Assembly (NCBI GenBank): GCA_964595945.1
Contig: CAZQSL010000001.1
Coordinates: 36,930-100,929 of the forward strand
Length of the DNA stretch: 64,000 nucleotides
Source: an uncultured bacterium
GTDB lineage: Bacteria; UBP15; UBA6099; JAJRTR01
Direction: 5' to 3'
Shown here: piece by piece, positions 15,965 to 40,222 of the stretch
Layout: every line of letters begins with the position of its first letter
Numbering within the stretch: position 1 is the stretch's first letter
The notes under the pieces: generated by a model
Told to the model about the DNA's origin: nothing
What the model saw: the letters and a program-made list of their open reading frames with translations, nothing else
The model's database searches: none
Translations under genes and position numbers: made by a program

Positions 15965-16089
15965 CACGGCGGCAAATCTCGTGATGAGTCGCGGGGTGAT
16001 CGACTGATTGCAATGAAATACAGATGACCTGCGCAGACGGTATGCGGTGACGCTCCGTGGGCGTGTGTGTTTGCGACTGGAAGGAACTT

Positions 16090-16902
16090 ATGAAAATCGG
16101 ATTTTTCGGTGTAGGGAAAATGGGAGAGATCATACTTGGCGGATTGATCCGCGAGGGCATGTGCGTTGCGACCGATGTCATGATATTTGACGCCGTGATG
16201 GACAAGGCCGATGATGTGTCTGAGGCACTCGGTGTTGTCGCTGCTTCCGATCCGGCTGATGTGGCGCGCGAATGCGATATGATATTCCTTTGCGTCAAGC
16301 CCGATCAATTCGCGAGCCTTGCGAAATCCATCAGGAATGTTCTGAACGTCCGCGATGATAAACCCTGTTTCGTCAGCATCATGGCCGGTGTGAAAACAGA
16401 CCGCATCATGGATGCACTCGGGTGGGATGACCTCGCTGTCATCCGCGTGATGCCCAATGTCGCATGCACCGTAGGCAGGGGCATGGCAGGCATCGCCGCA
16501 AGTGACGAAGCGGAGGACGAAACGAACGAATTCGTCTTTGATCTCTTTGAAAAACTCGGCGGCGCCGTATGGGTCAAGGAAAAACAGATGGATGCGGTGA
16601 CGGCTGTCAGCGGTAGCGGGCCGGCCTATGTGTTTATGTTTATCGAAGCTCTCACCGATGCGGGAGTGATGATCGGCCTCGACCGCGCTACTTCACAAAA
16701 ACTTGCCGTCCGCACCCTTGCGGGCGCTACCGAAATGGTCAACCAGGAGCTTGGCGACACTCTCACTCTTCGAGCTCAGGTGTCTTCGCCCGGCGGCACA
16801 ACTGCTGCCGCTACGACAGCCCTCGAAAAATTCGGGTTCAGAAATGCCGTCATCGAAGCCGTCACGGCTGCCTGGAAAAAATCAATCGAACTTGGTTCGT
16901 AA
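16090..16902 (+). CDS. proC: Pyrroline-5-carboxylate reductase
   Basis: N-terminal Rossmann motif IGFFGVGKMGEIILGG and the C-terminal P5CR dimerisation domain (SSPGGTTAAATTALE). The ATG at 16090 has a GGAAGG RBS. Confidence 0.85.
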   Translation: MKIGFFGVGKMGEIILGGLIREGMCVATDVMIFDAVMDKADDVSEALGVVAASDPADVARECDMIFLCVKPDQFASLAKSIRNVLNVRDDKPCFVSIMAGVKTDRIMDALGWDDLAVIRVMPNVACTVGRGMAGIAASDEAEDETNEFVFDLFEKLGGAVWVKEKQMDAVTAVSGSGPAYVFMFIEALTDAGVMIGLDRATSQKLAVRTLAGATEMVNQELGDTLTLRAQVSSPGGTTAAATTALEKFGFRNAVIEAVTAAWKKSIELGS

Positions 16903-16921
16903 GAAAAAGGAAGCACTGCAA

Positions 16922-19351
16922 TTGGCTGAAAAGAAACCGGCAAAAAAAACGACCAATGCCTCGAAAAGCACGGGCAAGGGAAAACCGCGCGCGAAAAAAA
17001 ATGCCGCGAAAAAGCCTGCTCCCAATAACATGGTGCTGCGCGAAATCCTTGCTATCCTCGTCACGACATTCGCGATCCTTTCGGCGATCAGTCTTTTCGT
17101 CGGCAAAGACGCAAAGGCGCTGTACGCTATCAGACTCATGTATGCTTCGCTTTTTGGACTGCTGGCATTTACGGCACCCTTACTCGAAATCACCGCTGCA
17201 TTGTGGGTTTTCGCACGCCGGAGAGTACTCGCCCTTTCGATGTTGCACATCGCGATCGTGACTCTGCTCGCGGGATATGTTATCAATGTCGCCATGCACG
17301 CGGACACGATTACCGCATCCGCAAAGGCCGGCGGCCTCATCACGCTTTCGCTCGCATCATTTCTGTCGTCGCAGATCACCCCGGCAGGTGCTTGGGCAGT
17401 GGCAGGCGCGATAGCTCTCATCTACGCGCGGTTCGCGTTCAAGGTCTCGTATATCGAGATCGGGAGAAAGGCAGCGCCTCATGTAGCCGCCGGTGTCGAA
17501 GGCATAAAAAAAGCCGTCGCCGGCGTCGAGGAAACAGCAACTGCAAAAGTGCGCGAAGGCAGCGAAAAACGCCGCGAGAAGGCAAAGGAAATCAAAGAGA
17601 AAAAAGAAAAGGAAATGGAAGAAAAAGTGCGCCGCCTGCAGGAAGAGGAGGCGCGCAAAATGAGATCGGCAGACGCTATAATCGCCGAAGCCGAAGAAAT
17701 CACGCGGGATGCGGCTCCTGCAAGAAAGCCCGATCCCGCGCCGGCTCCACAGGCCGTCCCGCATATCACGCATGATGACAGGAAGGAAGAGCAGACTACC
17801 CTTTCATTTATGGATGACGATCCCGTCGACGAAATATCTGCGGACATGGCGCTCGAAGAAACACAGATCGTCCGCATGGTCGAAGGGGAAGACGGCGAAA
17901 TGATCGAAATTTCATGGCGGCTGCCAAAACCCGAAGACTGGCTCGACGAAGTCAGGGAAAAAGCCGAAGCGGTCATGGACAATTCGATGCGCGACAAGCT
18001 CGAAGATACCCTCAAGAGTTTTCAGGTGCCAGCCCGCATTTCCAACGTTGTCAAGGGGGCATCGTTCACGAGATTTGAGATCGAACTCGAACCCGGCACA
18101 AAAGTTAACCGCATCGTCTCTCTCGAAACCGACATCGCGCTCTCTCTCGCCACTGATTCGAAATCGATCCGCATCGAGGCCCCGATCCCCGGAAAATCCG
18201 CCATCGGCATCGAAGTACCCAATAAAAACAGGGCTGTCGTGCCCATGCGCCACCTCTTCGTGAAACCCGAATTCGCGCGCAACAACACACCTCTGTCATT
18301 CGTACTCGGCGAAGACATCATCGGGCAGGCAGTATTCCCGAGCCTGATCAAGATGCCGCATCTGCTCGTCGCAGGTTCGACCAATTCGGGTAAAAGCGTG
18401 TGTCTCAACTGCATCATTTCGAGCATACTTGCCAAGGAGTCGCCCGACGACATACGTTTTATCATGGTAGACATGAAGCGTGTCGAACTCACCCCATACG
18501 ACGGCGTGCCTCACCTGCTCTCGCCCATCATCACCGAGGCGCAGGAAGCCGCGAGCGCGCTCCGCTGGATATGTGAGGAGATGGATCGCCGCTATAAACT
18601 CTACGCGCAGATGGGCGTGCGCAACATAGACAGCTTCAATGCGAAAATGGAAAATCCCGAAGACAAAATGCACCGCATCGTCGTCGTCATCGACGAACTC
18701 GCCGACCTGATGATCGTATCATCGCCGGCCATGAATATCGAAAATTATATCTGCCGCATCACGCAGCTCGCCCGCGCTACGGGCATACACGCAGTACTCG
18801 CCACTCAGCGTCCCGACACCAAGGTCATCACCGGCACGATCAAAAACAACATCCCATCTCGTATCGCTTTCGGCGTCGCCTCGCAGATCGACTCGCGCAC
18901 GATCATAGATCAGAAGGGCGCGGAGTCACTCCTCGGGCGCGGCGACATGCTCTTTCTGCCATTCGGCTCCAACAAGCTCGAAAGACTCCAGGGCGCGTAC
19001 CTTTCTGACAACGAAGTCAACCGACTCGTGGATTTCTGGAAGGCACAAGTGCTCGACCAGTTCGTGTATCCGCTAAAATTCGACTCCGTAGACCCCGGCG
19101 CAATGGGCGGCGGCGGCAGCGACGAATTCCTCTCCGAAGACGAAAAGCTCTACAAGGCGGCCGTGGAAATAGTAGTGACGACAAGTCAGGCGTCGATTTC
19201 GATGATACAGCGCCGCCTGCGCATCGGCTACAACCGCGCCGCGCGCCTCGTCGAACAGATGGAAGAACGCGGTGTGGTCGGCAGCTACGACGGCAGCCGG
19301 CCCCGGGAAGTGCTGCTCACTAATGATCAGTTCCGCTCGGGCGAATATTGA
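16922..19351 (+). CDS. ftsK: DNA translocase FtsK/SpoIIIE
   Basis: Four N-terminal TM segments, a charged Lys/Glu-rich linker, a motor domain with Walker A GSTNSGKS, and a C-terminal gamma winged helix (ISMIQRRLRIGYNRAARLVEQME). The track ORF starts at 16703 inside proC. I chose the TTG at 16922, which has an AGGAAG RBS. An ATG at 17030 is an alternative. Confidence 0.87.
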   Translation: MAEKKPAKKTTNASKSTGKGKPRAKKNAAKKPAPNNMVLREILAILVTTFAILSAISLFVGKDAKALYAIRLMYASLFGLLAFTAPLLEITAALWVFARRRVLALSMLHIAIVTLLAGYVINVAMHADTITASAKAGGLITLSLASFLSSQITPAGAWAVAGAIALIYARFAFKVSYIEIGRKAAPHVAAGVEGIKKAVAGVEETATAKVREGSEKRREKAKEIKEKKEKEMEEKVRRLQEEEARKMRSADAIIAEAEEITRDAAPARKPDPAPAPQAVPHITHDDRKEEQTTLSFMDDDPVDEISADMALEETQIVRMVEGEDGEMIEISWRLPKPEDWLDEVREKAEAVMDNSMRDKLEDTLKSFQVPARISNVVKGASFTRFEIELEPGTKVNRIVSLETDIALSLATDSKSIRIEAPIPGKSAIGIEVPNKNRAVVPMRHLFVKPEFARNNTPLSFVLGEDIIGQAVFPSLIKMPHLLVAGSTNSGKSVCLNCIISSILAKESPDDIRFIMVDMKRVELTPYDGVPHLLSPIITEAQEAASALRWICEEMDRRYKLYAQMGVRNIDSFNAKMENPEDKMHRIVVVIDELADLMIVSSPAMNIENYICRITQLARATGIHAVLATQRPDTKVITGTIKNNIPSRIAFGVASQIDSRTIIDQKGAESLLGRGDMLFLPFGSNKLERLQGAYLSDNEVNRLVDFWKAQVLDQFVYPLKFDSVDPGAMGGGGSDEFLSEDEKLYKAAVEIVVTTSQASISMIQRRLRIGYNRAARLVEQMEERGVVGSYDGSRPREVLLTNDQFRSGEY

Positions 19352-19472
19352 ACTTTTCCGACAAACGCTCCGGACTCTCCGTCAGATTCCGGCTGGCAGA
19401 CAGGCAGTACCCAAACCAGTTCTCATCTTTACGGGCGATAGCCCGCAAAGTTGCGATCAGTATACCCCCTGA

Positions 19473-19499
19473 AGCTCCCCACGCGGGAGCTTTTTTTTT
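19473..19499 (+). terminator. Rho-independent terminator downstream of ftsK
   Basis: GC hairpin agctccc-cacgc-gggagc followed by a 9-nt T run. Confidence 0.6.
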
Positions 19500-19552
19500 G
19501 CAGGCAGGCATGATACCAGCAGGATAGTTCGGAATGATAAAAACTGCTACAG

Positions 19553-19752
19553 AATATACTGAATATCAATAGAAATTCCCCATCCATTGTCATTGAAGTC
19601 TCCCGGGAAAAAACCTTGCTATAGTGAAAACATGTTTGTATTATCCGTATTAATCCGTGTCAGAAAGTCTTTATTGTTTTCCGATGCTACGCAAGATCAT
19701 CTCGACAGACCATAACCATACACAGGGGAATTCGATTGATATTTCGTATAAT
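19553..19752 (+). repeat. Composite dispersed repeat, copy 1 (28-nt block 19553-19580, 100-nt block 19652-19752)
   Basis: The 28-nt block aatatactgaatatcaatagaaattccc and the 100-nt block ending in tataat recur at 27531-27557 and 27652-27753 with about 85-90% identity. The spacers between blocks are unrelated. Confidence 0.7.
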
Positions 19753-19827
19753 CGTCACGGACATCTTTTCGAAAAGCAGGAATTTCCGGCAGCTGATGCT
19801 CGAGCAGCGTCATTACGCCCCCGCTCA

Positions 19828-20145
19828 TCACTTGCGATCTGATGGCATAGTGGGGGGCTGCTGATGGTGGATGCGGTTGACATCTTTGTGGTGAAAACAG
19901 TGGTAGCAGAGCACGCGCGAGACTGCCGGGCGGTTTTGCGCGGTGACAGAATACGAAATCTTCATACACGATCGGCAGCAGATACGGTGGCACTCCTCGC
20001 AACGGGAGTAGAGGTCGATAGCAAACGATATGCCGCAGATATCGCAGGTCGCGGGAGCGATGCCTTCTCTGATCATGTTGACCTCATTTCCGATACCGGT
20101 ATTCCGGCAAAAATGATAGTGTAGCGCAATCATGTCTGATGTCAA
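19828..20145 (-). CDS. Cysteine-rich putative double zinc-ribbon protein (hypothetical)
   Basis: Four CxxC-like pairs (CDIC, CEEC, CCRSC, CYHC). Transcribed divergently from bamA. No homology search was possible. Confidence 0.35.
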   Translation of the reverse strand: MTSDMIALHYHFCRNTGIGNEVNMIREGIAPATCDICGISFAIDLYSRCEECHRICCRSCMKISYSVTAQNRPAVSRVLCYHCFHHKDVNRIHHQQPPTMPSDRK

Positions 20146-20361
20146 TGATCAAGGTGCCGCGAGGAAATCCGGCCGCGCGAAAAACTTTATTCATCCCAGC
20201 GTCATCATCCACCCGCGACTGTCCAATCTCATATCAGTATCGCCAGGTAAGCGTAGATACAGGCCGTTAGGGAGATGTTTTGAAATGCCATTGATTAAAT
20301 GTAGAACTAATTCCAATAATATATTAGAATGTGTCTGTTTATACGCTATTGGAGGAGATAG

Positions 20362-22140
20362 ATGAAAATCTGTAGAAGCGCATATCTGCTGTTTGCCCTC
20401 ATGCTCATGGTAACGGCAACCCCCGTCATGGCAGAGGATATGGCACGAGTCACATCGCAGGACGAAGTGATTGTCAAGGCGATCGATGTCGCCGGCAACT
20501 ACGAAATCACTGACGATGAAATCCTCGCCTCCGTCCTGACCAAAGTCGGCGAGCCCCTCTCGACTGAAAGCCTCGAAATCGATCTGCAGAAGATTTTCGA
20601 CCTCGGGTATTTTTCAAAAGATGTCAAGGCAAGCCTTTCGGAATATGACGGCGGGGCCAAAGTGACATTCAATGTCGAGGAAAACCCCGTAATTAACGAT
20701 ATTGTTTTCGACGATGCGAAATCAATACCTGCAGCGGACCTGCGTGACCAGATGAAGTCTGTCGTCAACAAACCGCTCAACAGCAATACGCTCAGGACCG
20801 ATATCGAGACGATCGAAAAATACTACAGCGCCAAGGGCTATCTCGCCGCCAGGGTGATCGACGCCAGGATGGACGAAAACAGGACGATACACATCGTCGT
20901 TTCCGAAGGCGTGATCAAGGCGATCAAGGTCGCGTATTTTTCGAAGGGCGATGACGAATCAAATCCCGAAGGCAGCCCCGAACAGTCGCAGATACTCGAC
21001 AACGGCAAGACAAAGCCCTATGTCGTCACCCGCGAGATGAAGACAAAACCGGGCGATGTATATAACACGCAGAAGATCAGCAAAGACCTCCAGAGAATAT
21101 ATAACCTCGGGTTTTTCGAAGATGTGCGCACAAGCATAGAAGCCGCCGAAGACCCCGGAGAAGTAGTGCTCGTCATCGAGGTCGAAGAGTCGCAGACAGG
21201 CTCATACGGATTCGGCGCGGGCTACAGCAACAGCACCGGATTCACCGGCTACCTCTCGGTGTCCGACCGCAATCTGCGTGGCAAGGGCCGTAGGGCCGAC
21301 GCAAAACTCGAATTCGGCGGCAGCGCCGACAGTTTCGAAATCGGATACTTCGAACCCTGGTTCGACAAAAAACAGACAAGCGTCGAAACTACCCTTTACA
21401 ACACTGTCAAGGAAAATCTCGACTATGGACTCGGCGGCGTCTATTCCCCGGACTACGAAGAGCGCCGCACCGGTTTCACATTCACCGTCGGCCGGCCACG
21501 CACGGATTACACAAAGGTTTTTCTCGGGCTCAAGGCCGAACGCATCAACGTCGACCCCGAAGAATTCGACTACCTCGACGGCTCCTCGCGCAGCATCACG
21601 GGCACTATCAGGACAGATACGCGCGACAATGTTTTTAACCCCGGCACTGGCCGCCTCGACTCTCTTTCGCTCGAACTCAACGGCATGTTTCTCGGCGGTG
21701 ACTATGACTTCGAAAAAATGAGCTTCGATCTCCGCCGCTTCCGCAAAGTCACAAAGAAGCAGACCATCGCGGTCCGCATGCTGATGGGATACTCGTGGGA
21801 CGACATCCCGGCGTTCGAATACTTCGACCTCGGCGGCGTCAACTCCATCAGAGGTTATGACGAAGACGAATACTCGGGTACGAAAATGATCCTTTACAAT
21901 GCCGAATACCGATTCACCCTTTCCGGCAATCTCTCGGCCGCGATCTTTGCCGACGCCGGCGACGCTTGGGGCAAAGGCGAAACTCTCGAACTCTCCCCCA
22001 TGAAATACCAGAAATCCATCGGCGCCGGCATCAGACTCAAAATCCCCCAATTCGGCATCGGCCCTGTCAGACTCGACTACGCCTACGCCCTTTCGGCGGA
22101 AGACACGAAGATTCACTTCGGCTTCGGACACATGTTTTAA
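20362..22140 (+). CDS. bamA: Omp85/BamA family outer membrane protein assembly factor (short form, reduced POTRA number)
   Basis: Signal peptide, POTRA-like repeats, and a C-terminal beta-barrel with alternating hydrophobic strands ending in a terminal Phe (GFGHMF). GGAGGAG RBS. Followed by skp and lpxD, the canonical order. Confidence 0.83.
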   Translation: MKICRSAYLLFALMLMVTATPVMAEDMARVTSQDEVIVKAIDVAGNYEITDDEILASVLTKVGEPLSTESLEIDLQKIFDLGYFSKDVKASLSEYDGGAKVTFNVEENPVINDIVFDDAKSIPAADLRDQMKSVVNKPLNSNTLRTDIETIEKYYSAKGYLAARVIDARMDENRTIHIVVSEGVIKAIKVAYFSKGDDESNPEGSPEQSQILDNGKTKPYVVTREMKTKPGDVYNTQKISKDLQRIYNLGFFEDVRTSIEAAEDPGEVVLVIEVEESQTGSYGFGAGYSNSTGFTGYLSVSDRNLRGKGRRADAKLEFGGSADSFEIGYFEPWFDKKQTSVETTLYNTVKENLDYGLGGVYSPDYEERRTGFTFTVGRPRTDYTKVFLGLKAERINVDPEEFDYLDGSSRSITGTIRTDTRDNVFNPGTGRLDSLSLELNGMFLGGDYDFEKMSFDLRRFRKVTKKQTIAVRMLMGYSWDDIPAFEYFDLGGVNSIRGYDEDEYSGTKMILYNAEYRFTLSGNLSAAIFADAGDAWGKGETLELSPMKYQKSIGAGIRLKIPQFGIGPVRLDYAYALSAEDTKIHFGFGHMF

Positions 22141-22164
22141 GCCGTGATCTCTGGAGGTGACTTA

Positions 22165-23487
22165 GTGACTATTTTTTTCGGGCGCATCACGACTGCAGTC
22201 GCACTGTGCTTACTTTCGATCGTCTGCCTGCAACTGCCGGCACGAGCCGAACTCCAGCCCCAGACCGCCACTGTCAGGGCTGTCACCGTGCAGGTACACT
22301 GCCAGACACCCCTGCCCGCGCCGCTCATGGACAAGATCAACACGAGTGTGCTTAAGGTCGGCCAAAAAGCGCTCGAAGGAAAATCCCTCTCCGAAGCACA
22401 GTCCCTTCAGGACGCACTCATGCAGGTCATGAAAAAAATCTTCAACGAGGTCCTGAGCGGATTCATCGTGACCGATATCGAAATAGCCGTCGGTGACTCC
22501 ACCGCCATCAGTATCTACATCGAACCCGAAGGCGCAACCATCCAGAAAGTGATCTTCGACCTCAACCTCCAGGAAGGCGTGCATCCGTTCTGGAAAGACA
22601 TCATCTCGAAGCGCCTCGGCGATGTACCGTCGAATATCGACACCGCGCTCGCAGGCATCCCGGTCGAATCAGCCCGCTGGGCCACTCCCATCATCACCGA
22701 AATCATCTCCGCCGAAATCGCGAAAGAAGACCGTTTCCCAGGCTTTGCGCACGATATCACCGTCACCATCTCACCTGACACCCACATCAGCGTCACCCTC
22801 AGACCCGACTCCCCCACTATCCGCTCCGCCCACCTGAAATTCCGCTCCGTCACTCTCCCCTCTCTCATGATCGAACAATTCAAATTTGACCTCGCGTCCA
22901 AATCAGACTATCTCATCGGCCTGCCTATCATTTTCGCTAAAGAAGAAGAACCCGCCATCCGGCAGCAATTTCTGAAATTCATCGAAGAAAACTCCTCGGC
23001 TCGCCGGCTCGGCGCCTCAAAATACTACGTTCGACTCTATCTGCAGAAAAAGGCCACTGTCAGCTATACCGTCAACTCCACCAAATATCACGGTTTCGCC
23101 CGCGTGAAGTTTTCTATCGGAAAAGAGGAAAACAACCCCGACGCCGAAGCGCATCTCGGCATTTTCCTCGGAAAACGCAACGAGCTGTTCACCGAAATCA
23201 ACCTCTTCCCAGGCCCGCTCGACCTTCAGTTCAACATCGGCATAGGCGAACACTTCGGCAACATCTACATCGCCGGCGGCCGCAACCTGATCGACGGCCT
23301 CGACCGATTCTGGGCCACCTACACGATCACGGAAGACATCTCCATCTCAATCGAAAAAAATGTCGTCGAAGACGACCGGCACGATACCGAAGGCTCCATC
23401 TCATTCAAAGCCCATGACTTCTACAGCATCGACCTCGTCACGGACTTCGAAGATACCACATGGCTCAGGTTCAATGCCAACCTATAA
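22165..23487 (+). CDS. Hypothetical exported protein, 440 aa, unknown function
   Basis: A GTG at 22165 is preceded by a GGAGGTGA RBS. Signal peptide with a predicted cleavage after PARA. The C-terminal third shows an amphipathic beta-strand pattern. No recognisable motif. Confidence 0.6.
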   Translation: MTIFFGRITTAVALCLLSIVCLQLPARAELQPQTATVRAVTVQVHCQTPLPAPLMDKINTSVLKVGQKALEGKSLSEAQSLQDALMQVMKKIFNEVLSGFIVTDIEIAVGDSTAISIYIEPEGATIQKVIFDLNLQEGVHPFWKDIISKRLGDVPSNIDTALAGIPVESARWATPIITEIISAEIAKEDRFPGFAHDITVTISPDTHISVTLRPDSPTIRSAHLKFRSVTLPSLMIEQFKFDLASKSDYLIGLPIIFAKEEEPAIRQQFLKFIEENSSARRLGASKYYVRLYLQKKATVSYTVNSTKYHGFARVKFSIGKEENNPDAEAHLGIFLGKRNELFTEINLFPGPLDLQFNIGIGEHFGNIYIAGGRNLIDGLDRFWATYTITEDISISIEKNVVEDDRHDTEGSISFKAHDFYSIDLVTDFEDTTWLRFNANL

Positions 23488-23519
23488 TCCCCGCCAATAT
23501 CGAAAGGAGCAATAAAGTA

Positions 23520-24071
23520 ATGAACAGAATGTGGAAAACCCTGATACCGGGTATCGCAATCATCCTCACCGTAGCAGCAGGCATCATCTACCTCCAATCC
23601 GGCAAAGCTGTCGCCGGCAGCCATGTAGTCGGCTATGTCGACTCCGACTCCATCCTCGAAGCCTACGCCCCGGCAATCGCAGTGCACAACGAGCTCGGCC
23701 AGCTCCAGAAAAAAAATGAAGACGCCCTCCGCGAAAAAATCACCGCAAAATTCGGCACCGGCGACCCCTCCCTCCTGCCCAAGGAATCCCAGATGGAAAT
23801 ACAGAAAATGATCGAAGAAGCCGAAGCTTCATACCAGTCCCAGATGGAAGACCTCCGCAACCGCAAATGGACGCCCATCGTCGAACAGGTTCATTCCGCA
23901 ATGGAAAAGGTCGCCGCTCAGGAAGGCACCGATGTCGTACTTGACCGCTCAGCCGTACTCGCTGGCGGTGTCGACCTTACACAAAATGTCATCGACTACC
24001 TCGGCAAACAACAACCCGGAGCCGCCCCCACTGCAGCGCCGGCCCAGCCTGCCGCACCTCCAAAAAAATGA
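23520..24071 (+). CDS. skp: Periplasmic chaperone Skp/OmpH family
   Basis: AAGGAG RBS. A signal peptide followed by a roughly 150-aa coiled-coil protein (VVGYVDSDSILEAYAPAIAVHNELGQLQKKNEDALREK). Positioned between bamA and lpxD. Confidence 0.7.
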   Translation: MNRMWKTLIPGIAIILTVAAGIIYLQSGKAVAGSHVVGYVDSDSILEAYAPAIAVHNELGQLQKKNEDALREKITAKFGTGDPSLLPKESQMEIQKMIEEAEASYQSQMEDLRNRKWTPIVEQVHSAMEKVAAQEGTDVVLDRSAVLAGGVDLTQNVIDYLGKQQPGAAPTAAPAQPAAPPKK

Positions 24072-25153
24072 AGAACCTTGCGTACATAGCTCTCCTCATC
24101 TTTTCAGCGGCGGCTCTCTCCGCCGCCCTGTACGTCAAGCACGACAAAAAAACTCATGCTTCCGTCATCGGCACTGTCGACGCCGTTACACTCTTCTCTC
24201 AATCCAGGGAATTTGTAACTATCGAAAATGCCAGATATGATCTCTTTTCAAAAACATTTCCGGAAAGATCATTTCCCGCATCTCAAACCAAATCCAGCAA
24301 ATACGCACAGGCGCTTGCCGAAAGGCAGGCGCTTTTTTCACATTTTTCGACTGAAGAATCCGCTGCCACCGTCCACAACGATACCGGCGAAGCCCAGCGC
24401 CTCCTCGACACCGAGCGCTCATCTGTCGCTACTTCATATCAGCAACGGCTTGAGTCTCTTTACCATGACATCTCATCACAGCCCCCCCCAGATCTTTCGC
24501 AAATCAGATTCGATCTCATGAATCTCGAACTCAAACTCAACGTCCTCAGCCGCGACCCGCTCGTCATGTCTGCCACACGGCTCAACAGCCTGGAGTCTCA
24601 GGCCAGCGAATACCGAAACCTTATCGCTCGCACCAATCAGGACCATATCGCGAGATCCGCTGCCGACTTTTCCGCCGGTGCCGAAAAACTCCGCGCCGAG
24701 CTTTCCGCACAGCTTTCCCTTCTCGAAGAACAGTACGCATCATCAGTAGCGGCAAGCGCAAGCAACGCTCAGGCAGTCGCCAGCGCCGAAATCACTTCAC
24801 AACGCAACCATATCGACTCCATCCGCCGCGAAATCGCCTCTCTGACATTTCCATCAACACTTTCGCAACATAATTTGAAACACGCAAATAACCAAACGAA
24901 GCAGTCCTTCGCCACCATCGAATCAAAACACAGAAAAGAATTCTACCGGCGTCTCCAGCGAAAAACCCCCGCCATCGCCGCCTCGAAAAAAATCGATACT
25001 GTCGTCATCAGCCCCTGGCCCACATGCGGCCGCAACTCGCGTGATCTTACCAGAGATCTCGCTCAAGCCATGTTTTTCGGCTCGCAGCATAAACGGGGCA
25101 CTCACAATGATACCTCAAAATTCACCAGCGACGGAGACACAAATGCTCGTTAG
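24068..25153 (+). CDS. Hypothetical signal-anchored coiled-coil periplasmic protein (possible second OmpH-like protein)
   Basis: ATGA-coupled to the skp stop. N-terminal signal/anchor and a long Q/E/S/A-rich heptad-like region. The 3' end overlaps the lpxD start. The last ~45 aa of the ORF look non-native. Confidence 0.45.
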
Positions 25154-26168: not shown

Positions 26169-27176
26169 ATGACCACAAACAGCATCCAGCTACTCAGGGA
26201 AAAGGCCGAACTCTCCTTCGCCCGGCGTGGCCTCGCATGGGGGGGATTCACCGGCGCGCTCTGGGGACTCGACGGGGTACTTCTCGGCATCGTGCTTGGC
26301 ATGGCGCCGTTCAACGACGCAAAGGTTTCAATGCTCATCGCTCCCATCGTAGCCGCTGCCATCCATGACGGGTTCGCCGCACTGTGGCTATTTATCATTA
26401 ATATTTCATCCGGCAAATTCCGGGAATTTCGCCGCACGCTCGCTACCAGACCCGGCAAGGTCGTATGTATCGCGGCACTCTGCGGAGGCCCCATAGGCAT
26501 GACCGGCTACCTGCTGGGCATCAATCATGCCGGCCCAGCCTACGCGATGTCCATATCCGCGATCTATCCTGCTCTCGGGTCGGTATGCGCCATGTTTTTC
26601 CTCAAGGAACGTATCTCGCCACGCGCGTGGGCAGGCATTGCGTTAAGCGTCACGGGAGCCATTATTGTCGGGTGGCAGCCACCATCTGGCAACGCTCCAC
26701 ACTTCTATCTCGGCGTCGCTTTCGCCTGTATGGCCGCTGTCGGCTGGGGGCTCGAAAGCGTACTCTCCACCTACGGCATGGACCTCATCGACCCCGACAT
26801 CGCCATCAACATCCGGGAAGCCGTCTCTTTTCTCGCATACATGATCATCATTGTCCCGGCCATCGGCGGCATGGGATTTCTCGCCGCTGCCGTCCCTGAA
26901 AAAACCACTCTCCTCATCGCTGCCACCGCTCTCGCTGGCGGCCTGTCATACTTCTCGTGGTATCGTGCGATGAACATGACTGGTGTCGGACGCGCCATGG
27001 CTCTCAGTGTCACCTATGTCATCTGGAGCATCGTCTACAGTGTCGTACTGACCCGGTTGGGCCTGATGGAATTCCGCCTCACTCCATTTATCATCGGCGG
27101 CGCTGCCGCCATCACCACCGGCACACTTCTCATCATCAGCAATCCCGGAGAACTGCTCAAGCTCAGAAACAACTGA
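26169..27176 (+). CDS. DMT superfamily (EamA-like) transporter
   Basis: About 10 TM segments arranged as two EamA-like halves. GGAG RBS. Confidence 0.62.
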   Translation: MTTNSIQLLREKAELSFARRGLAWGGFTGALWGLDGVLLGIVLGMAPFNDAKVSMLIAPIVAAAIHDGFAALWLFIINISSGKFREFRRTLATRPGKVVCIAALCGGPIGMTGYLLGINHAGPAYAMSISAIYPALGSVCAMFFLKERISPRAWAGIALSVTGAIIVGWQPPSGNAPHFYLGVAFACMAAVGWGLESVLSTYGMDLIDPDIAINIREAVSFLAYMIIIVPAIGGMGFLAAAVPEKTTLLIAATALAGGLSYFSWYRAMNMTGVGRAMALSVTYVIWSIVYSVVLTRLGLMEFRLTPFIIGGAAAITTGTLLIISNPGELLKLRNN

Positions 27177-27194
27177 CCCGAGGAGGTGTCAACC

Positions 27195-27470
27195 TTGTCC
27201 GCCACGCAACTGCCCCTGAAAATGTCCGTACTCCGCGAAACCACCACCGCGGCGCTCTCCCCCGCGCAGATCGTCGAAAGGCTCGCCCCCTCGTACGGCG
27301 GCGAAAAACAGCTCAACCTTTCGACTGTCGAGTCGCATCTCATGGCCCTCCGCGCAGTGGGACTCGTCGAGGCGGACAATCCGCGGATCATCGACGGCTC
27401 TCTTGTCCTCAGCTTCGCCGCTACCGATGCCGGTCGCGCTAAATTCGCTCAGTATGGAAATAATTCCTAA
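27195..27470 (+). CDS. Small hypothetical protein, possible winged-helix DNA-binding protein
   Basis: A TTG at 27195 lies 9 nt after a GAGGAGG RBS. The segment STVESHLMALRAVGLVE resembles an ArsR/MarR-type recognition helix. Confidence 0.35.
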   Translation: MSATQLPLKMSVLRETTTAALSPAQIVERLAPSYGGEKQLNLSTVESHLMALRAVGLVEADNPRIIDGSLVLSFAATDAGRAKFAQYGNNS

Positions 27471-27753
27471 CCGTTCACGGAATACTCGCGGAGGACCTTT
27501 TGTGCAGAAAAGGTCCTCCGCACCTCTCATATATACTGAATATCAACAGAAATTCCCTACCACAATTTATCGAAGCGACCCGATAGAGCAGCCTTGTATC
27601 AGGCGGGGATAACCCCAGCCCCTTCGAAAAACAGTCATGAGCTATCCGTGAAATCCGTGTCAAAAAGTTTTTTATTGTTTTCGGATGGTACACCAGATCA
27701 TCCCGGCAGACCATAACCATACGTTGGGAAATTCGATTGATATTTCATATAAT
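27468..27753 (+). repeat. Composite dispersed repeat, copy 2 (flank 27468-27491, palindromic hairpin 27490-27519, 28-nt block 27531-27557, 100-nt block 27652-27753)
   Basis: Shares the 28-nt and 100-nt blocks with copy 1. Its 5' flank plus hairpin recur inverted at 40223-40278. Its 28-nt block recurs inverted at 48262-48290. Confidence 0.7.
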
Positions 27754-27896
27754 ATTTCAATGTTTTTCTGGTAAACCATGAAATAGTGATGTGGGGTTAT
27801 GCGAGCCGGGCAAAGCCCGGAGAGGCGGGTTTTTATTGAGGAAATGTCTCTCCGGAAAGATGCTCGAATCGGGGAAACCCGGGGAGTCCGGGCGGC

Positions 27897-28814
27897 TTAT
27901 TTGGCCGGATCTGTTTTTTTGTCTTCTCTTGGGCCTACGGACCACTGTCCGCCTTTTGCGTTGACTTTGAGATATTCATTGTACTGGCGGGCGCAGCCGC
28001 TGGCGATTTCGCGGACGCGGCCTATCATGTTCTGTCGTTCGGTGACGCTGATGGCGTTGCGAGCGTCTAGCAGGTTGAAGCAGTGCGAACATTTGAGGAC
28101 GCGGTCGTAGGCGGGGAGCACGAGTGAGAGGCCGAGGAGGCGTTTGGCTTCGGCTTCGTGGATATCGAACATTTTGAATTGGCCTTCGATGTCGGCGTAT
28201 TGCAGGTTGTAGTAGGATTGCTGACGCTCGTTTTCGTGGTAGATGTCGCCATATTTGAGGTCGCCGGTCCATGTGAGGTCGTAGACGCTGTCGACGCCCT
28301 GCATGTACATGCTGATGCGTTCGAGTCCGTAGGTGATTTCGGCGCATACGTTGGTGCAGTCGACACCGCCGACTTGCTGGAAGTAGGTGAACTGGGTAAT
28401 TTCGTTGCCGTCGAGCCAGACTTCCCAGCCGAGTCCCCATGCGCCGAGAGTGGGTGATTCCCAGTCGTCTTCGACGAACCGGATGTCGTGATCCTTGAGA
28501 GAGAGTCCGACTGTTTCGAGGCTTTTGAGGTAGATGTCCTGTACGTCGTCTGGTGAGGGTTTGAGGATGACCTGATATTGGAAGTAGTGCTGGAGGCGGA
28601 GCGGGTTTTCGCCGTAGCGGCCGTCGGCGGGGCGGCGCGAGGGTTGCACGTAGGCGACTTTCCAGGGATCGTCGCCGATGGCCTTGAGGAATGTGAATGG
28701 ATGAAATGTGCCGGCGCCGACCTCGTTGTCGAAGGGTTGTGCGATGACGCAGCCGTAGTCGGCCCAGAAGCGCTGGAGGCGCATGATGAGTTCCTGAAAT
28801 GTGATCTTGTCCAT
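27897..28814 (-). CDS. glyQ: Glycine--tRNA ligase alpha subunit
   Basis: Strong GlyQ-family similarity throughout ([11 protein letters not shown]...FW...GC; [32 protein letters not shown]). I chose the internal ATG at 28814, which matches the usual GlyQ N-terminus, over the 42-aa longer track ORF. Confidence 0.9.
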
Positions 28815-29010
28815 GTGTGAGTGTGGGACGGAGAGAGTGTGGGGACTATTGGAGTGGGGGTTCAGTCGCGCCGTGGTTTCTCCGTTTTCCTCCTTGATGT
28901 ATATTATTGCATCTTCTTGTAAAAAATGCTGAGTGGGCACAGGTTTTTCCGTCTGGCAACGGTTGCAACCGATGTTGCCGGGTGCGGCATGTGATTGTCG
29001 GTTGTGTAAG

Positions 29011-30320: not shown

Positions 30321-31313
30321 ATGAAGGGCGGAACCATCCTCATCACAGGCGGCGCGGGCTTCATCGGAAGCTGGACCGTCAGAGCATTTCTCGCAGATAC
30401 TTCCTGCAATATCGTAATCCTCGACAACTTCTCGAACGGCTCGAAGGCCAATCTCGAATCCTTTAGAAACGACTCCCGCATCCTCGATGTCATCAAATGC
30501 GATGTGGCCAATTCGCGACGTACGGCTGAAATCGTCTCGCGTGTCAAACCAGATATCTGCGTCCATCTCGCGGCACAGATCAACGTGCAACACAGCATCG
30601 ACGATCCCTGCGACACATTCAGATCCGACGTCACCGGCACATTCCATCTCCTCGAAGCCTGCCGCGCAGCAGGGGCGAAATTCGCATTTATGAGCACCTG
30701 CATGGTCTACGATCTCTCCGCGCCTTCCGGCTCCATCGCCGAAACTCATCCTGCCGTCCCTCGCTCACCCTATGCCGCGGCCAAGCTCGCGGGCGAAAAT
30801 CTCACTGTCTCCTACTTTCACGCATACGGCATGCCCACTGTCGTCATGCGCCCCTTCAATACCTATGGCCCCCGCCAGAAAGCATCGGGCGAAGGCGGTG
30901 TCGTTTCCATCTTCCTCTCGAAGCATATCAAGGGCGAAAACCTCAACATCTACGGCACAGGCAGGCAGACCCGCGACCTGCTCTATGTCGAAGACTGCGC
31001 CGATTTCATCCTCCGCGCCGTCAGTTCGAAAAAATGCTACGGCCGCATCATCAACGCCGCAACCGGTTCGGATATCACGGTCAATGACCTCGCCGCCCTC
31101 ACACTCACTTTGCCCACCGCCAACCCCGGAGCGAAAATCAAACATGTCAAACATATCCACCCGCAGAGCGAAATCATGAAACTCTGCGGCAATTACGACC
31201 TCGTCGCCTCGCTCCTCGGCTGGCGGCCGAAAACCGATCTGCGCACTGGCCTCGAAAAGACTTCCGAGTGGCTTACTTCCCTTATCGAAAAAGGAGATAC
31301 GCGATGGCTATGA
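30321..31313 (+). CDS. NAD-dependent sugar epimerase/dehydratase (SDR family)
   Basis: Rossmann motif ILITGGAGFIGS and a catalytic YxxxK region. Confidence 0.85.
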   Translation: MKGGTILITGGAGFIGSWTVRAFLADTSCNIVILDNFSNGSKANLESFRNDSRILDVIKCDVANSRRTAEIVSRVKPDICVHLAAQINVQHSIDDPCDTFRSDVTGTFHLLEACRAAGAKFAFMSTCMVYDLSAPSGSIAETHPAVPRSPYAAAKLAGENLTVSYFHAYGMPTVVMRPFNTYGPRQKASGEGGVVSIFLSKHIKGENLNIYGTGRQTRDLLYVEDCADFILRAVSSKKCYGRIINAATGSDITVNDLAALTLTLPTANPGAKIKHVKHIHPQSEIMKLCGNYDLVASLLGWRPKTDLRTGLEKTSEWLTSLIEKGDTRWL

Positions 31314-32503
31314 GCAAACCCGCAATCGAAGGCGGCACACCAGTCCGCGACAGGGTCCTGCCATATTCCACCCAATGGATCGAACAGTGCGACATCGACG
31401 CCGTCGTCGACACGCTACAGTCCGACTGGCTCACGACAGGACCCAAAGTGCGCGTTTTCGAAAAAGACTTCGCGGAATACACAGGCGCGGCTGCCACAGC
31501 CGCCGTCAACTCATGCACATCGGCGCTCAACGTGTCGGTCGTCGCATCCGGTATTGGCCCCGGTGACGAAGTCATCACCACGCCGCTGACATTTATCGCC
31601 ACGACCGCTGCCATCATCCATGCTGGCGCGACACCGGTTTTCGCCGACATAAGGCCCGACACATACAATATCGATCCCGCAGCCGTCGAAGCTGCCATTA
31701 CCCCACGCACCAGGGCCATCATTCCGGTCCACTACGCTGGCAACCCAGTCGACATCGACCCCATCATGGAGATAGCCCGCAGGCACGGACTCATCATCAT
31801 CGAAGACGGCGCGCACGCCGCCGGCGCTGAGTATAAAGGGAAAAAAATAGGCGCCTTCGATGTCACTACCTGCTTCAGCTTCCATCCCATCAAAAACATG
31901 ACCACAGCCGAAGGCGGCGTCATCACCACCCATGACACCGCGTTCGCGGACCGTATCCGCTCGCTCGCGTATTTCGGCATACCCAACGATCCCTACAAAC
32001 GCGCATCCAGCCCCCGCCCGTGGCATTATGATGTCGAAGCCCTCGGCTATAAATACAACATGAACGAGATTTCCGCCGCGCTCGGCATTTCCCAGCTCAA
32101 ACGCCTCGACCACTTCACTGCTCTGCGCACCGCCATTGCCGCCCGCTATGACGAGGCTTTCTCCACTCTTGACGCCATCGCCACTCCTGTCGTCACCGCA
32201 GACGCGAAATCCGCATGGCACCTTTATGTAATACGGCTGCGCGAAGGCGCGCTGCGTGTCGATCGCGATCATATCCTCGCCGCGCTACGTGCCGAGAACA
32301 TTTTCGCCAACCTCCACTACACGCCTGTCTATCGCCATCCGTACTGTGTGGAAGCACTCGGTAAAAATCCGGCCGATTACCCTGTCTGCGATGCCACTGG
32401 CGCTTCGATCATCACCGTTCCGCTGTTCCCGAAAATGACAGCCGCCGACACACAGTCAGTCATCGACGCAGTCACGAAGCTCGCTGAATGGTATGCGGCG
32501 TAG
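31304..32503 (+). CDS. DegT/DnrJ/EryC1/StrS family PLP-dependent sugar aminotransferase
   Basis: Family-typical aminotransferase fold with a conserved Lys region (SFHPIKNMTTAEGG). Overlaps the epimerase stop by 10 nt. Confidence 0.88.
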   Translation: MAMSKPAIEGGTPVRDRVLPYSTQWIEQCDIDAVVDTLQSDWLTTGPKVRVFEKDFAEYTGAAATAAVNSCTSALNVSVVASGIGPGDEVITTPLTFIATTAAIIHAGATPVFADIRPDTYNIDPAAVEAAITPRTRAIIPVHYAGNPVDIDPIMEIARRHGLIIIEDGAHAAGAEYKGKKIGAFDVTTCFSFHPIKNMTTAEGGVITTHDTAFADRIRSLAYFGIPNDPYKRASSPRPWHYDVEALGYKYNMNEISAALGISQLKRLDHFTALRTAIAARYDEAFSTLDAIATPVVTADAKSAWHLYVIRLREGALRVDRDHILAALRAENIFANLHYTPVYRHPYCVEALGKNPADYPVCDATGASIITVPLFPKMTAADTQSVIDAVTKLAEWYAA

Positions 32504-32574
32504 GCGGTTTTGATCAGTAGATGGATTGGGTGAGCAGATACGATCTGAAAAAAAACAATAATTCATACAACGAT

Positions 32575-33672
32575 CTATCCATTTTCCCTTAACAGTTCGG
32601 CGACGATGCGGTCGACGGCGAGGGCGTCTTCGCCGGTAGCAGCGGTGCCGGACTCTGCCGGGTCGAGGAGTCCGCGCGTGGCGCGCAGGAAGTTGTCGAT
32701 CTTGCGGTAGTGCGTGAAGGCGCGTGGCGTAAGAGCAGGGGGCAGGGAGACGGGTTTGCGCATGCCGAAGAGTCCGGTGTCGAGTTCGGTCGTGACCCTG
32801 GCCGGCAGGAACGGTGTGCGTGAGGAGGTAGTGCTGTAGCGCAGGTTGCCGCCGGAGCACTGGAAATAGCCGTAGTCTTCTTCGGCGAGAGAAAGGGTGT
32901 GGCGGCTCATGCGGATGTAGGAGATGACGCCTGAGGGAGCTGTGAGGAGGATGGCTGCGTGATCTGGTTTTGCCGAGCCGGATTCGAGAGTGCGGAGCTG
33001 GCCCTGCACGCGGACGGGCTGTCCGAAAAACCACAGGGCGGTGTCGATGAGGTGGCAGATGACTTCGAAGATGCCGCCCGGGCAGCGTGGGTCGGCGGTG
33101 CGCCATCCGGGCGAGAAGGATTCGGTCGAGCGGCCGGCGCGGCGCGCGAGGTCCATGGCGCGGTTGACGATTGGCACGTTGCCATAGGTGATGAGTCCGT
33201 TCCAGACGAATTCGGCCTGATAGCAGTCGCCGTAATTACCCGAGTTGATGAGGTCGCGGACGTGGTGGATGCCGCGGTCGCAGCGTTTGTGGTAGCCGAC
33301 GTGGAGCACGACGCCCGCGTCGCGGCAGGCGGCTATCATGCGTTCGCCGTCTTCGATGGTGGGAGCCATGGGTTTTTCGCACAGGACGTGTATGCCGCGG
33401 CTGGCGGCGGCGATGACGTGCTGCGGGTGCAGGAATGTAGGGGTGCAGATGCTGACGGCGTCGGGGCGGACGGTGTCGAGCATTTCTTCGTAGTCGGTGA
33501 ATATCTGAGGGACGCCGTAGCGGCGGGCCATCTTGGCGGCGACTTCTTCACGTGAGTCGCACAGGGCGGCGAATTCGACTTGCGGGTGCATGCGGTAGTA
33601 GGCGATATGGCCGGGTTCGGCGAATCGCCCGCATCCGACTACGGCTACTTTGTATTTTGATTTGCTGGTCAT
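32575..33672 (-). CDS. Gfo/Idh/MocA family NAD(P)-dependent oxidoreductase
   Basis: N-terminal Rossmann region KVAVVGCGRFAEPGHIAYY and the EKP motif region (LCEKPMA). Start taken at the ATG at 33672. Confidence 0.85.
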   Translation of the reverse strand: MTSKSKYKVAVVGCGRFAEPGHIAYYRMHPQVEFAALCDSREEVAAKMARRYGVPQIFTDYEEMLDTVRPDAVSICTPTFLHPQHVIAAASRGIHVLCEKPMAPTIEDGERMIAACRDAGVVLHVGYHKRCDRGIHHVRDLINSGNYGDCYQAEFVWNGLITYGNVPIVNRAMDLARRAGRSTESFSPGWRTADPRCPGGIFEVICHLIDTALWFFGQPVRVQGQLRTLESGSAKPDHAAILLTAPSGVISYIRMSRHTLSLAEEDYGYFQCSGGNLRYSTTSSRTPFLPARVTTELDTGLFGMRKPVSLPPALTPRAFTHYRKIDNFLRATRGLLDPAESGTAATGEDALAVDRIVAELLRENG

Positions 33673-33716
33673 TGGCTTCCATTCGGGAGGGAGATAAGAA
33701 GAAATAAACGTCAATT

Positions 33717-38128: not shown

Positions 38129-38295
38129 TCTCCCCCAAAAAATCATTTGCCACCGAACCAATACTGATTATAATAAAATTGCGTGATGAAAAGCACACCT
38201 ATTTTTTTTAAAAATTATATGGCGAAAGATGTGTTGGTGGTATAATTGAATTGAGCATATACATTCTGACGCCAACATGAGATAAGGTGGTCAAT

Positions 38296-39393: not shown

Positions 39394-39423
39394 TAGATCA
39401 TACCGAAGTAACCGGAATTTATA

Positions 39424-39453
39424 GCCCCCGCGAGATACATCGGGGGCTTTTTT
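39424..39453 (+). terminator. Rho-independent terminator after the dockerin gene
   Basis: Hairpin gcccccg-cgagatacat-cgggggc followed by a T run. Confidence 0.65.
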
Positions 39454-40062
39454 GCGGGCGCTTCCTTCTTTTGGATACTTTGTGAAACATCCTTGTTGAT
39501 AATATTTCTGGCTTTCGCCATCCGAAATAGTACAATTCTTCGCTGCTTGCGGCGAATATGAACGTGTGCATCTTATGATACCCCGCAAGCGGCGTGGAAT
39601 TAGACCCGAAGAGAATGAATGACCCCGGAGCAAATTCTCTCCGATCAAACTATCCTTGTATGGTAAGCCCAATGCTGTTTACTTAAGCTGTCATTCCGGG
39701 ACGATGCCCCGGATTCTATGAGACATGAAGTCAGGAGGGGCTTTCGAATACAGATGTTATTATCTTAAGTAAACAGCATAGAGGCTAAGCCAGTGAAAAC
39801 TGAATTGCATCAGTTGGTAATTATAGCTTATGATGGCGGTATGGTATGATTCGCATTAGAGCCTGTCCACGAACTGTCGAGTTGCCGAATGACAATGTAT
39901 TTTCTATAACAATGCGGCATCATAATCGCTAACCATGAGGTATTATTGTAACATCGTCACAATCGTTTACGAGTTTTTAGCCAGGCTCATAAATGCTTGT
40001 CATTCTGAGCGAAGCGAAGAATCTTGCTTGCCTTTTCTTAACATTATCGGCAAGCGTTCACG

Positions 40063-40094
40063 ACAAGAGCATGGAGACCCCCTTTTTGAAAAAA
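40063..40094. repeat. GGAG...CTCC palindromic hairpin family member
   Basis: ggagaccccctttttgaaaaaatggggtctcc. Perfect long palindrome with a T-run/A-run interior. Confidence 0.6.
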
Positions 40095-40150
40095 TGGGGT
40101 CTCCAAACCTCTACCGAAAAACTTTATATGATATACTCCAGCCATTTTTT

Positions 40151-40188
40151 GCGGGTTACAAGCGGCATATCAGCCGCTTGTAACCCGC
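40151..40188. repeat. Perfect 16-bp-stem hairpin flanked by a T run (5') and an A run (3')
   Basis: gcgggttacaagcggc-atatca-gccgcttgtaacccgc. Looks like a bidirectional terminator between convergent genes. Confidence 0.55.
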
Positions 40189-40222
40189 AAAACCAGAGAA
40201 TCCTCCAAACATAGGGAGTTTT

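Follow-up and report, generated by a model that had tools for sequence, protein, structure and literature searches.

The locus and the question

What are the two exported proteins encoded among the outer-membrane (OM) genes of an uncultured bacterium from the GTDB phylum UBP15, and do they belong there? The stretch of DNA under study (contig CAZQSL010000001.1 of assembly GCA_964595945.1, positions 36,930 to 100,929) is 64 kb long and is referred to below as the window. Between 20.3 and 27.2 kb its + strand carries bamA, an open reading frame (ORF) of 440 aa named here ORF1, skp, a second ORF of 361 aa named ORF2, lpxD and the gene of an EamA-family transporter. All coordinates are positions in the window (Table 1) and all genes from bamA to eamA run on the + strand. 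A preliminary description of this locus, made from the sequence alone, had taken ORF1 and ORF2 for uncharacterised proteins of a single lineage, inserted into the canonical bamA-skp-lpxD order. The analysis presented here leads to a different explanation, to which a probability of about 0.8 is given as a whole: ORF1 is a protein of the SonA type, ORF2 is of the Skp type, both genes lie in one unit with bamA, skp and lpxD, and both products would serve OM assembly in the ways proposed below.

Identity of ORF1

ORF1 has no match in Pfam or NCBIfam, even at E<=1, and a word-indexed homology search returned only three relatives with 42-45% identity. An exhaustive search with a profile built from ORF1 and these three relatives retrieved 229 clusters (50% identity level) at E<=1e-3, including 161 at E<=1e-10, nearly all of them of 420-460 aa. 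One member (P0030) is UniRef100_F7NM22 of Acetonema longum, matched at E=6.7e-43 over positions 16-439, and BLASTP of ORF1 against the same protein gave 26% identity over 414 aa (E=5e-43). PMC13018214 (Nat Commun, February 2026) describes F7NM22 under the name SonA. Because both the BLASTP and the profile match to it are full-length, ORF1 is assigned to the SonA family; as judged from these alignments it is homologous to SonA from end to end and a distant relative of it. The word-based searches, which found no relatives of ORF2, badly under-reported the families of both proteins and alone suggested orphan genes.

The gene of A. longum SonA lies within a sonB-bamA-sonA-skp1 operon conserved in Negativicutes, and SonA was presented as conserved among diderm Firmicutes; it is co-expressed with BamA and the A. 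longum protein folds into liposomes in vitro (PMC13018214). ORF1 and this protein are similar in size (440 and 426 aa), both have a Sec signal peptide and POTRA-type repeats, and both genes are located directly between bamA and skp; a barrel of about 10 strands, as in SonA, is predicted for the C-terminal part of ORF1. They differ in sequence, only about one quarter of the residues being identical, in host, the nearest classified relative of the window belonging to UBP15 and not to Firmicutes, and in surroundings, A. longum having sonB and a sigma gene upstream of bamA whereas the window has neither there. In close relatives of the window the place of sonB is occupied by a flavodoxin-like gene. 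The presence of sonB upstream of bamA is a feature of the operon and not of the SonA protein.

Two SonA-family proteins from Selenomonadaceae metagenome-assembled genomes (MAGs), P0181 (MBO6178839.1) and P0182 (MBR3723460.1), bear the NCBI name 'acylphosphatase', which is probably an annotation error due to the absence of a SonA family model.

Architecture of ORF1

The AlphaFold2 (AF2) model of ORF1 was built from an alignment of four sequences only and has a mean predicted local distance difference test score (pLDDT) of 59. Together with the sequence and the family alignments it divides the protein into a signal peptide, two POTRA-like domains, a third POTRA-like region and a predicted small barrel (Table 1). 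An N-terminal hydrophobic leader is present in every full-length member of the family. The first POTRA-like domain is formed by a strand (39-46), two helices (52-70 and 75-96) and two strands (100-108 and 112-121) and the second by a strand (128-135), three helices and two strands (194-201 and 205-214). The third region presents in the family alignment a conserved strand-helix-helix-strand-strand order with alternating residues at 289-304, and three POTRA domains were reported for SonA (PMC13018214). The C-terminal third, described earlier as beta-rich, is so in both sources: 10 strands were modelled, and in an alignment of 100 homologues residues 308-440 form ten alternating hydrophobic/polar segments with short turns between them. 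The C-terminal end of the family is mostly W-[LVI]-R-[LFI]-[IV]-G-N-[LF] or a close variant.

In a Foldseek search of the PDB the best matches of the ORF1 model were BamA, TamA and Toc75 (E from 6e-9 to 1e-6), and domain 1 matched structures of BamA POTRA1-4 at 1.3e-5 and 5.6e-5. A sequence search of the PDB with the family profile found only de novo designed transmembrane barrels. Neither PF01103, PF07244, PF08479 nor any other Pfam family was matched by 100 members of the ORF1 family (E<=0.1). Membership of ORF1 in the Omp85 family was considered and rejected, since matches to PF01103 and the POTRA families are missing and the resemblance is at the level of the fold only. The barrel of Omp85 proteins such as BamA, TamA and Toc75 has about 300 residues and 16 strands, whereas the barrel region of ORF1 has about 130 residues and 10 strands. 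ORF1 is probably a miniature look-alike of BamA, unrelated to it in sequence, that looks and works like a reduced Omp85 protein. A lipoprotein nature was also rejected for ORF1 and ORF2, neither leader having a lipobox when read, and a Pfam scan identified no OmpM- or SLH-like tether domain in ORF1, ORF2 or the 100 family members.

The bamA-sonA pair in other lineages

A SonA-type gene directly follows bamA in 16 of 16 loci, that is, the window and 15 others, three of which were listed and not individually checked. The two genes are separated by 10-70 nt or overlap shortly in 13 of the 15 other loci; the remaining two have spacers of 183 and -55 nt. The pairing holds for members whose match to the profile is as weak as about 1e-13, with identity down to about 20%.

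The arrangement of the window (BamA, ORF1 homologue, OmpH, an unannotated protein of 325-357 aa, LpxD) was identified in the three relatives from the word search and in two loci from a genome collection. Four more close loci with the pairing came from a metagenome scan. The nearest classified relative is Dive96_bin1.91 (L003), with 47% identity, from GTDB p__UBP15; c__UBA699. In A. longum (L013) the order is TolC-TamB-sigma-SonB-BamA-SonA-OmpH-319aa-OmpH-LpxD. Loci L007 and L008 present TamB-sigma-202aa-BamA-SonA-OmpH-368aa-OmpH-LpxD-...-LpxC-FabZ-LpxA-LpxI, and L009 and L010 BamA-SonA-OmpH-315aa-OmpH-LpxD. A single OmpH and a shorter protein were identified in L011 and L012 (BamA-SonA-OmpH-256aa-LpxD-LpxA-GFO-LpxB-MsbA) and in L025 (BamA-SonA-OmpH-269aa-LpxD-LpxA). 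The shortest orders are BamA-SonA-LpxD-LpxA in L005, BamA-SonA-LpxD in L024 and BamA-SonA alone in L006, which lacks skp and lpxD. One cluster of the ORF1 family holds a protein from an 'Armatimonadetes bacterium' MAG, and the contig name of L024 contains '4484_113'. The arrangement bamA-sonA-skp-(long skp)-(skp)-lpxD is conserved in A. longum and in distant uncultured lineages. The SonA family and its linkage to bamA reach well beyond Firmicutes, and this is the main increment of the analysis.

The gene order bears on the proposal that SonA is the OM docking partner of TamB, an analogue of TamA acting in lipid or protein transfer across the periplasm. The C-terminus of TamB would dock onto the POTRA domains or the barrel of SonA, and SonA would not be an aid to folding by BamA. 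The proposal is possible though doubtful: sonA is directly beside tamB in none of the loci and always comes after bamA, Veillonella parvula retains TamB without SonA (PMC13018214), and TamB was not recognised in the window, where the scanned ORFs of at least 200 aa matched other Pfam families or none.

Genes upstream of bamA, in the position of sonB, were identified in several loci: SonB itself (A. longum F7NM24, L013:4716-6113), L007:4689-6048, L005:4312-5947, L011:5222-5986, L025:3292-3930 and L024:3102-4058. Their common layout starts with a helical segment at the N-terminus, continues with a single transmembrane helix and a Pro/Ala-rich linker, and closes with a conserved C-terminal end of the '...SLRGE' type. 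In three loci they come directly after a Sigma70_r2 gene. SonB and the Sigma70_r2 gene look like a pair of extracytoplasmic function (ECF) sigma factor and anti-sigma factor, and SonB does not look like the 'OM lipoprotein' proposed in the SonA paper (PMC13018214). No sigma/SonB-like pair adjoins bamA in the window.

ORF2 and the Skp family

ORF2 occupies the slot after skp and before lpxD and carries an export signal, as in the Skp cluster of diderm Firmicutes, where 'three copies of Skp' after bamA were reported for Negativicutes and Halanaerobiales (PMC5007114, PMC5491611). The Negativicute cluster has a third, short copy of Skp, whereas none follows ORF2 in the window. Residues 1-23 may be a signal peptide, or else a signal anchor that is not cleaved. 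The positional equivalents of ORF2 in the close clade are 18-26% identical to it and share three blocks: 'IGxVD..LF' at the N-terminus, 'RFxLMNLxLK..VL..D' in the centre and 'EFxRRLRRKAxAVAE' at the C-terminus. Within the first block I34 and G35 are invariant in an alignment of four sequences and are substituted in two of eight (L016 and L018). The AF2 model of the long arm consists of helices 96-136, 144-160, 169-257 and 268-306, the longest with 89 residues, and pLDDT values are 74-94 over about 110-240.

In A. longum, L007 and L009 the place of ORF2 is taken by proteins of 315-368 aa, which have lipoboxes whereas ORF2 has a plain hydrophobic N-terminus. These long OmpH-like proteins match Pfam OmpH below threshold (2e-6, 4e-7 and 0.0039). 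Profile-profile comparisons were made with 8 sequences of the ORF2 family, the 3 of the long OmpH-like group and 15 ordinary Skp proteins. The ORF2 family matched the long group almost end to end (hhalign probability 96.3%, E=1.5e-9, 274 columns, 31-346 against 39-316). The long group in turn matched the 15 Skp proteins at the N-terminus (1.7e-9) and at the C-terminus (7.9e-9), and part of the Skp profile is covered by both matches, which suggests an extended or duplicated helical arm. The direct comparison of the ORF2 family with Skp gave E=2.9e-6 (88%) for the N-terminal columns 1-54 and E=3.8e-4 (36%) for the C-terminal part, on Skp positions 98-150. Controls with reversed alignments scored at most 22.5 (E>=0.02); since reversal abolishes all matches, the signal between ORF2 and Skp is not one of coiled-coil composition. 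One family member, L016, matched Pfam OmpH itself at 0.0059 over profile positions 18-136 (17.3 bits, cut-off 32.4). An earlier alignment of four members had given no significant hhalign match to Skp or to single long OmpH-like sequences; the signal appeared only after the family had been enlarged by the metagenome scan.

From these comparisons ORF2 is identified as a very divergent and elongated Skp/OmpH paralogue, the counterpart of the long middle copy of Skp. As in Skp/OmpH (PF03938), conserved N- and C-terminal core segments flank helical arms, and at 361 aa it is more than twice as long as Skp (about 160 aa). A search of PDB sequences with the ORF2 profile yielded noise only. The genes of 256-269 aa in the skp-lpxD slot of two loci (L011:9862-10632 and L025:7878-8687) have no relation to ORF2 or Skp detectable by hhalign; the slot is conserved and its occupant may not always be.

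Evidence against and alternative explanations

Several observations weigh against the explanation favoured here. In ORF1, much of the third POTRA-like region and the barrel have pLDDT values below 50 in the four-sequence model. The 100-member ORF1 family and a 9-member BamA alignment gave a best hhalign probability of 1.9%, and since this is no meaningful similarity ORF1 cannot be called an Omp85 protein by sequence. Cross-linking co-immunoprecipitation of SonA detected no BamA partner, and SonA is missing from V. parvula and Acidaminococcus fermentans (PMC13018214), because of which it is not an obligate subunit of the machinery that assembles beta-barrels (BAM); both findings count against a stable complex of SonA with BamA. 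A SonB-like ORF was not found on the + strand at 19351-20362. ORF2 has no match to OmpH or to any other Pfam or NCBIfam family at E<=1, its monomer model resolves only helices and leaves the termini at pLDDT below 50, and Foldseek with this model found generic coiled coils only (E>0.08); because of this its link to Skp rests on the profile-profile comparison of few sequences (8, 3 and 15).

The same features of ORF2, namely the lack of a Pfam OmpH match, the long helices and the generic coiled coils, would be expected of an unrelated membrane-anchored coiled-coil protein, a spacer or tether whose termini are merely Skp-like. The low probability of the direct C-terminal hhalign match to Skp and the unrelated slot genes of L011 and L025 agree with it as well. 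It is nevertheless distinctly unlikely, given the end-to-end match of ORF2 to long OmpH-like proteins that themselves match Skp at both ends and in the correct order, the failure of the reversed controls, the OmpH match of L016, and the location of the N-terminal 'IGxVD' and C-terminal 'A..A...G..VV' motifs at the places of the Skp core strands.

ORF1 might also be a small structural or channel outer-membrane protein (OMP) that merely travels with bamA, with N-terminal domains for contacts such as those to the cell wall or surface layer. POTRA-type repeats are known almost only from Omp85/TpsB transporters and FtsQ, which counts against this proposal. Without functional coupling it is difficult to account for the tight adjacency of bamA and sonA, which persists down to a profile E of about 1e-13, and co-expression of SonA with BamA was reported (PMC13018214), so that a mere travelling companion is very unlikely.

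Extremely unlikely is the insertion of two unknown lineage-specific proteins, new BAM accessories or an OM tether, into a canonical bamA-skp-lpxD cluster: in its favour are the absence of Pfam and NCBIfam matches, the word searches with three relatives and none, and the looked-up proteins being singletons at 90% identity, and against it are the 229 clusters of ORF1 that include the published SonA, the gene order shared by A. longum and distant MAGs, the homology of ORF2 to the middle Skp copy, the even G+C content, and the absence of peptidoglycan-binding or SLH matches in either ORF (Pfam, E<=1).

Of the preliminary description, the link to the envelope and the co-expression stand, and the insertion, the lineage specificity and the uncharacterised status do not. 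The link to OM biogenesis agrees with the SonA-type gene found after bamA in every locus. The survey of synteny that it had proposed found both genes at this locus in relatives, with the same order in A. longum and distant uncultured lineages, so that 'inserted' is not the appropriate term. Its view of ORF1 as lineage-specific and uncharacterised gives way to the size of the family and the homology to SonA (PMC13018214). Its view of ORF2 as a new kind of protein or an OM tether gives way to a diverged and elongated Skp/OmpH member with no evident tether. The structure prediction and fold search that it had also proposed were informative for ORF1 (BamA, TamA and Toc75) and not for ORF2 (generic coiled coils).

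Organisation of the unit

The positions of the genes and of their features are given in Table 1. The 592-aa BamA has a complete barrel: Pfam Omp85 was matched at 4.2e-40 over profile positions 1-325 of 325, POTRA at 1.7e-37 in three stretches, and NCBIfam TIGR03303 at 1.2e-85. A database protein is identical to ORF1 in sequence and start (P0001; 100% identity, 100% coverage), and an exact-sequence look-up found deposited products equal to the 592-aa BamA, the 183-aa Skp and the 334-aa LpxD. Every looked-up protein of the window, GlyQ included, is a singleton at 90% identity.

The gene junctions are tight and agree with those described before, and by exact-sequence look-up the starts used here are those of the deposited products. 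The TAA of bamA (22138-22140) is followed after 24 nt by the GTG of ORF1, preceded by its GGAGG. ORF1 ends with TAA at 23485-23487 and, 32 nt further on, an AAAGGAG precedes the ATG of skp. The TGA of skp and the ATG of ORF2 share an ATGA overlap. ORF2 ends with TAG at 25151-25153 and overlaps by 11 nt with lpxD, whose ATG is at 25143; a longer lpxD frame opens at 25041, and the Pfam and NCBIfam LpxD matches start only about 34-56 residues into it. The leaders and these junctions support the earlier view of ORF1 and ORF2 as exported proteins whose genes are closely joined to bamA, skp and lpxD.

A dcw cell-division cluster, with ftsK after it, makes up the upstream half of the window. The hairpin downstream of ftsK, which resembles an intrinsic terminator, is likely the upstream boundary of the bamA transcription unit, and the sigma-70-like match about 40 nt 5' of bamA is a weak promoter candidate, a consensus match only. 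Inside the unit a scan of the + strand found no terminator comparable to the 9-bp hairpin of ftsK, with weak terminator-like matches only (5-bp stems at 20920, 23143 and 26376). G+C content is even across the region and equal to that of the flanks, which gives no compositional sign of insertion. The genes bamA, sonA-like, skp, long skp paralogue and lpxD, with or without eamA, would then form one co-transcribed OM-biogenesis unit, as read from the DNA.

Table 1. Features of the bamA locus, with their positions in the 64-kb window.
Feature	Position	Strand	Basis and remarks
Hairpin downstream of ftsK, intrinsic-terminator-like	19471..19493	+	9-bp stem, 5 G-C pairs, then T run
Sigma-70-like promoter match, ~40 nt 5' of bamA	20291..20320	+	TTGATT-18-AATAAT, 9/12 positions
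bamA, 592 aa	20362..22140	+	Pfam, NCBIfam; 3 POTRA matches and complete Omp85 barrel
Ribosome-binding site of ORF1, GGAGG	22153..22157	+	Sequence read; 7 nt 5' of GTG at 22165
ORF1, SonA-family protein, 440 aa	22165..23487	+	BLASTP and profile match to SonA; Foldseek
ORF1 Sec signal peptide, residues 1-28	22165..22248	+	Sequence read; end ...LPARA|EL
ORF1 POTRA-like domain 1, residues ~36-121	22270..22527	+	AF2, pLDDT ~83-87; beta-alpha-alpha-beta-beta
ORF1 POTRA-like domain 2, residues ~126-214	22540..22806	+	AF2, pLDDT ~72-88
ORF1 third POTRA-like region, residues ~216-305	22810..23079	+	Family alignment; poorly modelled
ORF1 predicted C-terminal small beta-barrel, residues ~308-440	23086..23484	+	Model and alignment; 10 amphipathic strands
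skp (OmpH family), 183 aa	23520..24071	+	Pfam OmpH 7.5e-16, 59.1 bits (cut-off 32.4)
ORF2, elongated and diverged Skp/OmpH paralogue, 361 aa	24068..25153	+	Profile-profile comparison
ORF2 N-terminal hydrophobic segment, residues 1-23	24068..24136	+	Sequence and family alignment; no lipobox
ORF2 Skp-like N-terminal strand region, residues 32-55	24161..24232	+	Conservation, hhalign; 'IGxVD..LF'
ORF2 long helical arm, residues ~96-306	24353..24985	+	AF2
ORF2 Skp-like C-terminal region, residues ~281-336	24908..25075	+	Conservation, hhalign; 'EFxRRLRRKAxAVAE...'
lpxD, 334 aa	25143..26147	+	NCBIfam LpxD 1.2e-106, TIGR01853 9.3e-97
EamA-family transporter	26169..27176	+	Pfam EamA 1.5e-16; last + gene before convergent glyQ
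glyQ	27897..28940	-	Convergent to EamA gene

Proposed roles

ORF1 is predicted to be exported by Sec, to have three POTRA-type domains in the periplasm and to sit in the outer membrane by a small barrel of about 10 strands. For its role we infer that it most likely works in concert with an ancestral machinery of BamA, TamB and Skp at the outer membrane. With its POTRA domains it would bind a partner in the periplasm or clients that are not yet folded, in lineages without BamB-E and TamA, and a client- or partner-binding module close to BamA is preferred over a docking site for TamB.

For ORF2, a Skp-like trimer is proposed, with the short terminal segments forming the trimer core and helical arms of about twice the length. 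Such a trimer would offer a larger holdase cavity for big OMP precursors and would possibly be held at the membrane.

The earlier statement that BamB-E are not evident holds for the window in that no Bam lipoprotein domain was identified among its ORFs of 200 aa and longer, the search having not been exhaustive for short proteins like BamE. BamB-E act with BamA in Proteobacteria, and ORF1 and ORF2 may occupy an analogous niche. They have no homology or shared fold with ORF1 or ORF2, and they are periplasmic and anchored by a lipid, whereas an integral barrel is predicted for ORF1.

A wider proposal is that SonA is an ancestral and near-universal partner of BamA and no speciality of Firmicutes, as a two-barrel or TamB-docking unit, to which the long, membrane-tethered Skp would hand over large clients coming from the inner membrane. 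The two would be the 'accessory' layer that is missing in the BAM of non-proteobacterial lineages. It would apply to diderms without BamB-E and TamA, such as Negativicutes, UBP15, 4484-113 and Armatimonadota-type MAGs, and is rather unlikely.

Lipid A genes and other features of the window

In close relatives (L001:12730-16883, L014:8970-11116 and the JGI contig of P0002, of 26,593 bp from sample 3300075153) the gene after lpxD encodes an exported protein of about 413-438 aa without annotation, and lpxC-lpxA-GFO/IDH-lpxB come next. In the window the cluster ends after lpxD with the EamA transporter and the convergent glyQ (26169-28940). The ORFs scanned in the 64 kb included none of lpxA, lpxB and lpxC, and the lipid A genes are therefore split in this genome. 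Further downstream are a DegT-type aminotransferase (31268-32503, +) and a Gfo/Idh/MocA oxidoreductase (32575-33714, -), with an epimerase and a glycosyltransferase nearby. The relatives have their Gfo/Idh/MocA gene between lpxA and lpxB. The genes at 31268-33714 would fit the synthesis of a diamino-sugar lipid A backbone of the GnnA/GnnB type.

Between the terminator of ftsK and bamA, about 0.9 kb (19494-20361) contain no convincing gene on the + strand. A minus-strand ORF at 19828-20145 encodes 105 aa rich in Cys, with several CxxC-like pairs and no Pfam match, and the best promoter-like match of this region (10/12 positions) is at its start. The longest ORF of FtsK (16703-19351) has 882 aa from a TTG and overlaps with the end of the P5CR gene (16057-16902) that lies upstream of it. 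A stretch of about 110 residues rich in Lys, Ala and Pro precedes the membrane domain, and the true start may be further downstream.

Other features, at 38287-43157 and 60848-63927, are a dockerin-containing protein, an 892-aa protein with PKD, fn3 and FGE-sulfatase domains and a multi-domain [FeFe]-hydrogenase with a NuoF-like subunit next to it. A GH38 mannosidase was also identified (49704-52880). These genes point to an anaerobic, polysaccharide-degrading lifestyle.

Significance

The locus bamA-sonA-skp-long skp-lpxD is a new example of an old and widely conserved OM-assembly operon, and ORF1 and ORF2 are new and very divergent members of already known kinds. The gain is a better annotation and a broader evolutionary frame, and not a new mechanism or kind of system. 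Neither protein is captured by Pfam or NCBIfam, some SonA homologues are misnamed as 'acylphosphatase', and the alignment of 100 sequences together with the synteny rule provides a means of annotating the SonA family. The subject bears on the question of how, in most bacterial phyla, BamA functions without BamB-E. In very distant uncultured lineages the gene of a mini-BamA-like protein stays tied to bamA and a long Skp paralogue often accompanies the bamA-sonA pair, and the case for SonA as part of the ancient core of outer-membrane assembly becomes stronger.

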